Source of the DNA: Escherichia coli
GTDB lineage: Bacteria; Pseudomonadota; Gammaproteobacteria; Enterobacterales; Enterobacteriaceae
NCBI RefSeq assembly: GCF_003790525.1
Contig: NZ_CP033635.1
DNA: 64,000 nt
Strand: one strand, 5' to 3'
Shown: positions 57,001-60,000 of the stretch, piece after piece
Position numbering within the stretch: the stretch's first letter is position 1
How the letters are laid out: every line of letters starts with the position of its first letter
Program-made: the position numbers

Positions 57001-60000
57001 ACCATTCCCTGGCATCCGCTGGTGATACGTTGAATCACGGTTTTAAATGACGCATCCAGCTGTACCGCAGGAACATCATGCTGCATGACATCAGCAACGC
57101 GGGTCAGCAGGCGACGACCTAATGAACCGCCCGGGTGATAGCGCGCAAAATCATTCGGCATAAATTTGCGTTGGTGGATCATGGCAATCGCCAGCGCATC
57201 GCCGATCGCCATCGTCAGCGTGGTAGACGTTGTTGGTGCAAGATTATTCGGGCAGGTTTCATTCGCCATGTGGAGTTCCAGCACGGCATCAGCATTTTTC
57301 GCCAGCGTGGAATTTCCATTATTGGTAATGGCGATAATTCGGTTGCCGAAATTTTTCAGTGAAGGAACTAGCTTGAGGATTTCATCCGTTTCACCGCTGG
57401 CAGAAATAAGGATCAGAAGATCGTAAGGCGTAATCATGCCCAGATCGCCATGGAAAGCTTCTGCAGGATGAATAAAGAAACTAGGCGTACCCGTAGAGGC
57501 CAGCGTCGCTGACATTTTACGACCGACATGCCCTGATTTACCCATTCCCGAAAGAATAACGTGACCTTTACAGTTCATTATCAAATTAAGGACTCGCTGG
57601 TACTGCCCGGAATCCAGTTGTTTAGACAAGTTTTGTAATGCTGCGCCTTGTTCTGCCAGAGTCTGGCGAACAGAGGTAATTAGATATGGATCGATAGTAC
57701 TGCTCTGGTCATCAGGTAAATGTCTTTCAGACATATCAGCTCCTTTGCACGGAAATAATGCCACAGTCACAACAAACCCGAACCCACTATAATTTATTTA
57801 TGCTAAATCAATGGGTTGTAACAAAATTTTCAATGAATATAAAACCATGGTCAGTCCATGCTTATATGCAGGACTTATCACCTTCTTATTAAGTCGCAAT
57901 GTCTCATGGAGGTGCGAAGATGCTGCAATATTACAGGCGAGAAGGGGAACCAAATTTTGCCCACCTATTTAACACACCCCTACATTATGAACAAGGAATT
58001 TAGGATTTTTATCATTTATTAAAATGTTTCCTACTTGACTATTAAGGCAAAAAACAATTTATCAATTGATTATTTCCTTGTAAAAAAAGAACGTATGACT
58101 ATGTTATTAATAAATAAAACACGCAAATAATGGTGATGTTGTTTTGTGATTAACTATTTAAGTGCGGCATAATAAACAGGTTGACAATTTCTATGTAAAG
58201 AAGAGGAAAATAATAAAATTTTAGCGGTGACTATTGAATGATATGATAGTTGTGGTGTTGATTATTTCTGGTAATGAATGCGGAATTAAATCTGGCCGGA
58301 TTGTATTTTTGCTATATCTATTTTTCAGGAGATTATTATTAAATAGAAAAATAACAATGGTGATTATCTCCGATTGAGCTGGAGTCACGTATGCCAGCGA
58401 GTGCTTTCTTCCGGGCCTTCCTTCACTTCAGAGAAAGAGCCTATGGAAAAGAGGCAATCATCAGGCTCTTTTTGAGTCATATGCGCCGATAATCAACTGT
58501 CTTGAACGTAAAAATTATGGAGCAACATGATGCTACGATTCATTTCACTCTTCGTTCTTTCTGAGCATTGCGTTCAGGATGGTCAGCAATTTACGCATAC
58601 AGTCAACCAGCGCCACTTTTTTGGTTTTTCCGGCTGCTGGCAGATGCATGTAAAACGCCTTTATCACCGGATTAAACCAGGTTACCACAAGCGCTGCCAT
58701 GTGCAGGGCTGCTCTTGCCTCCGTACGCGCACTGGCGTCGTTCGGCCAGCAGATATGTGTGGGATAACAGGGATGTTATGTGAACTGAACTGTGTTTTGT
58801 TAGCGGGGGATGTTTATTGATGATTCGGGAGTGTTTAAGACCTGATGGCGTTATGCTCCCAAGTTTATTTTATATAAAGATCCAAAAGCAAAAACCCGCC
58901 TTGTGGGCGGGTTCTTAAGAATTAGTGGTGCCCGGACTCGGAATCGAACCAAGGACACGGGGATTTTCAATCCCCATGTCATAAAATTCAGATAGTTACG
59001 GGCATGTCAAGTTGTTGTCGAAGTCTTTCATGCGCATCCGATCACATAACTGTCGATAGGACGCAGATATGAAAATACTTCCCGTTGTCTCAACAAAAGG
59101 TGGCGAAGGTAAATCAACACAATCCGCTAACCTGGCTGGTTTTCTCGCCGATGCAGGTATCCGTACCCTGCTGATTGACGGAGATCATGCTCAGCCCACG
59201 GCAAGCAACATCTTTCCGCTGACATATGAAGCGTCAGCCGGTCTTTTTGAGTTGCTGATGCGCACGGCTGACCTCAGTTATCCCGATAACATCATTTCCC
59301 GCACAGCTATCGACGGACTCGATCTGATAGTCTCCAATGACCCTCATGAGCAGTTAAAAACTGCGATGCTTCACGCCCCGGATGGTCGTCTGCGCCTCCG
59401 GAATGTCCTGCAGCATCCGCTTTTTCTGAACAACTACGATGTCATTATAGTTGATTCTCAGGGTGCGCGTTCTGTCATGCTCGAAATGATTGTGCTGTCG
59501 GCCACTGATTCGGTTGTCGGGATGGTCAATCCGGTACTCCCTGATGTGCGCGAGTTTATTCGCGGCACTGTCAACGTTATGGAGAACCTGCTGCCTTACC
59601 GGGAACTGGGGATACCCCTGCCGAAAGTACGCACGCTGGTTAACTGCATGGATTATACGGCACTGGCCAGGAAGACGCTGGATGAGCTGGCCGGAATTAT
59701 TCAGACCGGTCGTTACAGCAGGCAGTTACCTGAAGGTGCGGTTTCCCTTCTTTCCACACAGATTTACGACCTGAATATTTACAAGCAGGGGCATGCGGCT
59801 GGTCAACCCGTACATCGTCTCGAAAAAGAATCCACACGTCGCAGTGATTCCGCGCTTGTCACGATGCACAGCCTGGCCTGTGAACTATTTCCTGAGTGGA
59901 AACAGGCGTTTGACGGGCTACTGGCTAACGGGGGAATACGTCAGTGATTCAGGTTAAGCGAGAACCATGCAGCTCCGTTACCCTGGCTTATGGACGTTAT

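Follow-up and report, generated by a model that had tools for sequence, protein, structure and literature searches.

A 50-nt piece of a tRNA-Phe gene in Escherichia coli (RefSeq assembly GCF_003790525.1, contig NZ_CP033635.1) marks, with a probability of roughly 93%, the attR (distal) end of an integrative conjugative element (ICE) that belongs to the ICEEc2/SPI-7/PAGI-2 family (PFGI-1 class) and is inserted in pheV. The stretch of DNA that was analysed, called the window here, is 64,000 nucleotides long; a group 2 capsule (kps) block lies to the left of the fragment and ICE genes lie to its right. The family assignment is based on marker proteins and architecture, not on identity to the ICEEc2 type sequence.

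The fragment, TGGTGCCCGGACTCGGAATCGAACCAAGGACACGGGGATTTTCAATCCCC, occupies positions 58926-58975 of the window and was compared with pheV of E. coli K-12 MG1655 (L004 967-1042). Its minus strand is identical, as the reverse complement, to nt 27-76 of the K-12 gene at 50 of 50 positions. The earlier note had claimed just such a 50-nt minus-strand match to the 3' end of tRNA-Phe with an abrupt end, and both parts were confirmed; the match runs up to nt 27, where the anticodon stem begins, and at the following position the window has T against A26 of the tRNA. The fragment spans the complete anticodon stem-loop together with the variable loop, T arm, 3' strand of the acceptor and CCA. Its first 23 nt, searched with up to three mismatches, gave a single hit in the window and none in 100 shuffles, and the match to pheV is far beyond chance. 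The 48 nt to the left are identical to the downstream flank of pheV in K-12 and in strain TUM1887, and a terminator scan located an intrinsic terminator in this flank (58917-58889, minus strand). Because the native downstream flank of pheV with its terminator adjoins the fragment, the latter was assigned to pheV and not to pheU. The junction is composed of the following features:

58878-58925, minus strand: native 3' flank of pheV, 48 nt with terminator (identity to K-12 and TUM1887; terminator scan)
58926-58975, minus strand: probable attR core, native pheV nt 27-76, displaced by ICE integration (50/50 to K-12 pheV; single copy in the window)
58976-59068, plus strand: ICE left arm, probably derived from attP (100% identical beside yghD, a P4-type integrase and malS in other strains)

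The left boundary of the element is exact and falls at 58975/58976. The 5' half of the tRNA had been described as absent, a claim that was correct only in part. ARAGORN found 0 tRNA genes and no complete tRNA over the window, and the Rfam tRNA model RF00005 scored 14.6 bits on 58929-58993, below its gathering score of 29, but the first 28 nt of ICE DNA (58976-59003) resemble a decayed 5' half of tRNA-Phe, with 25 of 20,000 shuffles reaching the alignment score. The arm starts with GCCCGTA, for which 6 of 7 acceptor pairs are possible. This likeness could be read as a sign that the fragment and the adjacent 28 nt form a real tRNA or tRNA-like gene, and PGAP indeed annotates a 78-nt 'tRNA-Ser' at the junction in the related loci L001 4049-4126 and L007 3503-3580, a name that appears in more than 20 of the listed genome matches to the junction. 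We consider such a gene extremely improbable, since ARAGORN calls no tRNA at the junction in the window, L001 or L007, the score of the Rfam model is about half its gathering score, the D-arm sequence of the putative 'tRNA-Ser' is not conserved, the anticodon of the fragment is GAA (Phe) and not one for Ser, and the PGAP annotation of strain GF4 has no tRNA at the same site. A functional tRNA should yield a cloverleaf at or above the threshold of a detector, and the junction gave none with either ARAGORN or RF00005. A scan of 58700-59150 for sigma-70 promoters found none. A hidden RNA gene at 58850-59070 was also considered and rejected, as a permissive Rfam scan returned sub-threshold hits only, mainly from the terminator hairpin, with the tRNA model at 14.6 bits.

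The genes to the right of the arm point to the identity of the element. The first of them, for a ParA protein, begins 93 nt to the right of the fragment:

59069-59947, plus strand: ParA/Soj-type partition ATPase, first gene of the ICE (open reading frame; ParA family WP_001696181.1 in related genomes)
61022-62410, plus strand: SPI-7-type island replicative DNA helicase, dnaB-PI (NF040583, 685.5 bits, cutoff 655; annotations in related genomes)
62400-64000, plus strand: PFGI-1-class ICE ParB, running off the end of the window (TIGR03764 ICE_PFGI_1_parB, 379.3 bits, cutoff 143.75)

The matches of the ParA reading frame to ParA-type NCBIfam models were all under cutoff. The replication and partition module of the family (ParA, SPI-7-type DnaB and PFGI-1 ParB) is present and is located at the end distal to the integrase. 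The window stops at 64000, about 5 kb into the ICE, and the far end was read in related complete genomes. Over the 5 kb of ICE sequence in the window, identity to the ICEs of TUM1887, APEC 102026, MS1679 and GPEC673 is 100%, and all four have an integrase-tRNA-Phe junction.

The junctions were compared among six complete E. coli genomes that share the kps-fragment-ParA junction. The closest is that of GF4, with 99.7% identity over 58000-64000, and none in the genome collection searched is 100% identical over the whole junction. An intact pheV next to an integrase had been predicted beyond the right end of the window. In these near-identical genomes the prediction held for five of the six, GF4 and four further relatives, which have an intact tRNA-Phe gene beside a tyrosine integrase 76-81 kb rightward, where the downstream element ends. 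In GF4 a single ICE of about 76 kb extends from the fragment to the tyrosine integrase and an intact minus-strand tRNA-Phe gene, followed by yqgA and speC, which identifies this gene as pheV; the intact tRNA-Phe adjoins yqgA/speC in both far-end regions that were read. A 22-nt core is present once at each end of the GF4 ICE, which indicates a single element and not a tandem array. Its genes encode STY4528/STY4534-type replication proteins, topoisomerase III, TIGR037xx ICE T4SS proteins, TraD, a type IV pilus (pil genes) with a shufflon, a UvrD-like helicase and a PFGI-1-class TraI relaxase (TIGR03760, 192.9 bits, cutoff 161.4). For the integrase, a 329-aa tyrosine recombinase, the nearest models are XerA, XerD and XerC, whose cutoffs it does not reach. 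The combination of PFGI-1-class relaxase, T4SS, type IV pilus and XerC/D-like integrase beside the tRNA gene is present in GF4, the one genome in which it was read. In VTB96815v, YZLc1-3 and EC17CM6 the GF4-type integrase-tRNA-Phe junction lies rightward of the kps junction at a distance of 77-81 kb and on the same strand, and Br_112_kylling has the layout of GF4 with a different integrase allele of 366 aa.

We infer the same far end for the genome from which the window comes. It might instead carry a fossil junction, that is, a genuine attR of an ICE whose far end had been truncated or rearranged through deletion, through inversion or by a second element. The lengths of the ICE among strains, which range from 76 to about 93 kb, and an ISVsa5 copy within the ICE of Br_112_kylling are in keeping with such events, and TUM1886, the sixth of the junction-sharing genomes, has its best integrase-tRNA-Phe match at 5.0 Mb on the other strand. 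We nevertheless regard a fossil junction as very unlikely, given that the expected far end is found in five of the six genomes with the kps junction and that the 5 kb of ICE in the window are fully identical to copies that are apparently complete.

An uninterrupted site was sought with a predicted attB made of window 58200-58975, K-12 pheV nt 1-26 and the sequence up to yqgA. This empty site, consisting of the kps flank, an intact pheV and yqgA, was found as a single uninterrupted piece in 209 complete genomes, and the top-listed matches had 100% coverage and 99.3-99.4% identity. The neighbour of the ICE end also differs among strains. In TUM1887, a genome without kps, this neighbour is yghD, directly abutting the ICE; in APEC 102026 it is the P4-type integrase of a different island, and in strain 64.1 it is malS. 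The empty sites and the varied neighbours together show the ICE to be a discrete insertion that has been spreading recently, and the kps-pheV arrangement to be older than it.

The capsule block and the elements in or next to it are as follows:

35266-58877, no strand assigned: group 2 capsule (kps) block, from yghD to the pheV flank (blastn against the TUM1887 locus, breakpoints 35265 and 58878)
36256-36294: JUMPstart element, found within the kps block
58545-58727, minus strand: IS110-family transposase remnant between kpsF and the pheV flank (mapped from the GF4 pseudogene ACHP5D_RS21210)

Reading frames for KpsF, KpsE, KpsD, KpsU, KpsC and KpsS lie at 49790-57770 on the minus strand, and KpsE is annotated in GF4. 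The IS110-family remnant is annotated as well in the ICE-free genomes with the empty site. The layout proposed earlier placed the element between pheV and an older kps island. The kps flank appears to predate the ICE, and the 209 empty sites fit with the ICE being the later arrival. The kps block itself can be termed an 'older island' on its position and distribution only; a search of the window with a pheV-like 23-mer found no second pheV-derived repeat bounding the block.

The fragment had further been described as an attR-type direct repeat. The attR junction and the tRNA 3' end with CCA are borne out, but alignment of the fragment with the 3' end of the intact pheV at attL revealed a repeat that is imperfect, with 46 of 50 positions identical. 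The differences are at tRNA nt 49, 50, 64 and 65, where attL has GG...CC and the fragment has CU...AG, and the four bases amount to two compensatory base-pair swaps in the T stem. In the window they are located as follows:

58937-58938, minus strand: chromosomal-type G and A at tRNA nt 65 and 64; both are C in the ICE-borne attL copy
58952-58953, minus strand: tRNA nt 50 and 49 (U, C), chromosomal type; G and G at attL, compensatory with nt 64/65

At attR, positions 49, 50, 64 and 65 carry the bases of K-12. The 29 genomes that match the attL query at 99.9-100% identity have GG/CC at nt 49-50/64-65, and so does Br_112_kylling in its variant ICE. ICE DNA lies 3' of the CCA of the intact pheV at attL, and this chimeric gene is still called as tRNA-Phe(GAA) by ARAGORN. 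Since the intact gene has ICE-type bases in its 3' part, the fragment in the window is the displaced native 3' part of pheV rather than a copy that was left behind.

The pheV junctions put the exchange 5' of nt 49, and the malS insertion narrows it further. Native malS reads GACTATGGGATTGATGGTTTTC. At the attR of the malS copy the ICE arm is followed by GGGGATTGA and then by TGGTTTTC, and at its attL malS is followed by GGGATTGA and then by AAATCCCC. GGGATTGA is the sole sequence common to the ICE core and the native malS site, and both malS junctions switch source there. The crossover in pheV probably took place within this segment, which comprises tRNA nt 28-35:

58967-58974, minus strand: likely crossover segment GGGATTGA, tRNA nt 28-35, 5' strand of the anticodon stem and first bases of the loop (malS junctions; agrees with the pheV junctions)

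The att site is of the anticodon-loop type of tRNA site. In the classification of Williams 2002, anticodon-loop tRNA att sites reportedly form a recognised class that is distinct from the T-loop site of P4-type integrases. The core of the malS copy is a mosaic, with CT at nt 49-50 and CC at nt 64-65, and the exchange is therefore not always limited to the anticodon loop.

The size and position of the repeat also bear on another source for the fragment, namely a pheV island with a P4-type integrase (PAI V/GI-pheV type) of which the fragment would be the attR remnant, the ICE being unrelated. GI-pheV islands are very common beside kps and leave partial pheV repeats (PMC11537424), and in APEC 102026 a P4-type integrase directly adjoins the fragment. 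The islands are similar in that they target pheV, reside between pheV and kps and have a distal partial tRNA repeat (PMC11537424). Their attR repeats, however, measure 19-23 bp and extend from the T loop to CCA (PMC11537424), whereas that in the window is 50 nt long and starts in the anticodon stem. In each of four chromosomal contexts the ICE sequence starts exactly at the end of the fragment. A XerC/D-like integrase (329 or 366 aa), not a P4-like one, lies beside pheV, and the window holds no second pheV-like 23-mer. Unlike the element described here, GI-pheV islands have an integrase of another family and are non-conjugative mosaics. On repeat length, start position and integrase type, a P4-type origin of the fragment was rejected and is effectively refuted.

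An origin in the ICE, by comparison, agrees with several known systems. ICEEc2 of E. coli BEN374 (pKLC102/PAGI-2 family; Roche et al. 2010, cited in PMC11537424, PMC13127887 and PMC6761156) likewise inserts downstream of tRNA-Phe in E. coli. At the tRNA end it has TraI, a helicase and a XerC/D-like integrase, and it shares the type IV pilus and the PFGI-1/SPI-7-class core genes. It was reportedly described at pheU; the copy in the window differs in that it is at pheV, directly beside kps. ICEEc2 uses both pheV and pheU as insertion hotspots (PMC11537424). ICEs of the type of Roche et al. 2010 have been found in pheV, pheU and malS, the same three kinds of site that were seen in this analysis, and recent work has shown that such ICEs drive Hfr-like transfer of chromosomal DNA from pheV and pheU (PMC13127887). 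SPI-7 of Salmonella Typhi lies between a complete and a partial copy of the tRNA-Phe gene pheU, with direct repeats at its ends (PMC4100779), and the DnaB of the window passes the NCBIfam model 'SPI-7-type island replicative DNA helicase'. SPI-7 differs in that it is at Salmonella pheU, spans 133.5 kb and has Vi capsule and SopE cargo, whereas the ICE of the window has other cargo and the capsule genes are outside it. ICEKp2 of Klebsiella pneumoniae and PAPI-1/pKLC102 of Pseudomonas belong to the same ICE family and also have the integrase at the tRNA end and flanking direct repeats, but their cargo genes are not in common with those of the window ICE. ICEKp2 integrates in tRNA-Phe as well, with excision shown to depend on its integrase (PMC6761156), whereas the Pseudomonas members target tRNA-Lys (PMC6761156).

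Starting from the observed sequence identities, the junction structure of the relatives, the empty site and the family markers, integration can be pictured as follows. The circular ICE would carry an attP made of the ParA-side arm, a 50-nt tRNA-Phe-like core (nt 27-76) and the integrase-side arm. The XerC/D-like tyrosine integrase would recombine attP and pheV by exchanging strands within the anticodon stem-loop or beside it, at GGGATTGA. After integration, the working pheV would consist of the chromosomal 5' part and the ICE-borne 3' part and lie beside the integrase, and the native 3' part of pheV with its terminator would be stranded at the opposite end of the ICE, beside ParA, as the fragment of the window. 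If the ICE were excised at that point, the two native halves would come together again as an exactly restored pheV. In this scheme we infer the activity of the integrase, the precise positions of cleavage and the current mobility of the element.

A more far-reaching interpretation is that the ICE does more than land in pheV. Foreign nt ~36-76 with a G49-C65/G50-C64 T stem would cause a chimeric tRNA-Phe to be expressed in every examined host whose ICE sits in a tRNA-Phe gene, attP would be a decayed, captured tRNA-Phe gene, and the mosaic core at malS would record an earlier exchange. We consider this interpretation unlikely. If it were true, and if the T-stem swap affected the stability, modification or targeting of tRNA-Phe, host translation could be altered or competing islands could be excluded, for example by blocking the T-loop att site of P4-type elements.

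Read as the attR of an ICEEc2/SPI-7/PAGI-2-family ICE in pheV, the fragment is a real but ordinary piece of well-described biology; the type of element and its tRNA-Phe target have already been published, and current understanding is unchanged. The details added here are minor and consist of the imperfect repeat (46/50) and the chimeric pheV that goes with it, the probable crossover at nt 28-35, the pseudo-tRNA artefact and the mosaic core at malS. The junction accounts for the recurring false 'tRNA-Ser' annotation in RefSeq genomes. The fragment gives the exact left boundary of the ICE in an E. coli with a capsule locus, a kind met among poultry and extraintestinal isolates, and the order of acquisition at the pheV hotspot is the kps flank before the ICE. 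Given the Hfr-like transfer by such ICEs (PMC13127887), an ICE beside kps could mobilise the capsule locus.

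In the kps-less strain TUM1887, about 100 nt separate yghD from the position lying 48 nt downstream of pheV; in the window the kps block takes their place. Its edges and an insertion sequence remnant lie at the following window positions:

35266 and 58877/58878, edges of the kps block from the comparison with TUM1887
58545-58727, minus strand, IS110-family transposase remnant with kpsF on one side and the 48-nt pheV flank on the other, mapped from GF4 (the closest E. coli genome sharing the kps–fragment–ParA junction)

Since no pheV-like repeat was found on the yghD side, the kps block is not delimited in the manner of a tRNA-integrating island. 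The IS110-family remnant near kpsF was also found in the 209 ICE-free genomes with an empty site (uninterrupted kps flank, intact pheV and yqgA), and it is therefore part of the older kps-pheV junction. Two small RNA matches were detected in the window:

16342-16563, minus strand, C0719 sRNA, full-length match (297 bits)
49137-49279, plus strand, isrN, full-length Rfam match (123.7 bits; gathering score 44)

The C0719 match agrees with an assignment of the window to the glc-gsp-kps-pheV region of an E. coli chromosome. The isrN match is situated within the kps locus, between serotype-specific region 2 and kpsS; isrN is an Hfq-binding sRNA encoded on a Salmonella island.

The attR junction carries a PGAP annotation in more than 20 RefSeq genomes, including the TUM1887 locus (L001) and that of APEC 102026 (L007):

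58926-59003 (L001 4049-4126; L007 3503-3580), minus strand of the window, "tRNA-Ser", 78 nt

This feature, in which the 50-nt pheV fragment is joined to 28 nt from the ICE arm, looks like a recurring annotation artefact. PGAP placed no tRNA-Ser at the attR junction of GF4. The 78-nt sequence, whose anticodon would be GAA, was rejected by both ARAGORN and the Rfam tRNA model.

The same 28 nt, with which the ICE arm opens (58976-59003; GCCCGTAACTATCTGAATTTTATGACAT in the tRNA sense), are similar to the 5' half of tRNA-Phe, with six of the seven acceptor pairs and an alignment score reached by 25 of 20000 shuffles. This similarity suggests that attP was derived from a complete captured tRNA-Phe gene, the 5' half of which has since decayed. 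At the attL of the ICE copy in malS of strain 64.1 (L008, about 1500-1680), the core is a mosaic of chromosomal-type CT at tRNA nucleotides 49-50 and ICE-type CC at nucleotides 64-65, a combination that would disrupt the T stem. The mosaic implies an earlier exchange or repair within the 50-nt core, not at the anticodon loop.

TUM1886 (NZ_CP128970.1) has the kps–fragment–ParA junction at about 0.90 Mb (97.6% identity) and its best integrase-tRNA-Phe match at about 5.00 Mb, on the other strand and about 4 Mb from the kps junction; this genome may hold two ICEs or be rearranged. In APEC 102026 (L007 2142-3326), the P4-type integrase of another island directly follows a displaced pheV-type fragment. 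The insertion of the ICE therefore separated the tRNA gene from a genomic island already resident there, and the outcome is tandem accretion at one tRNA by way of two different att sub-sites.
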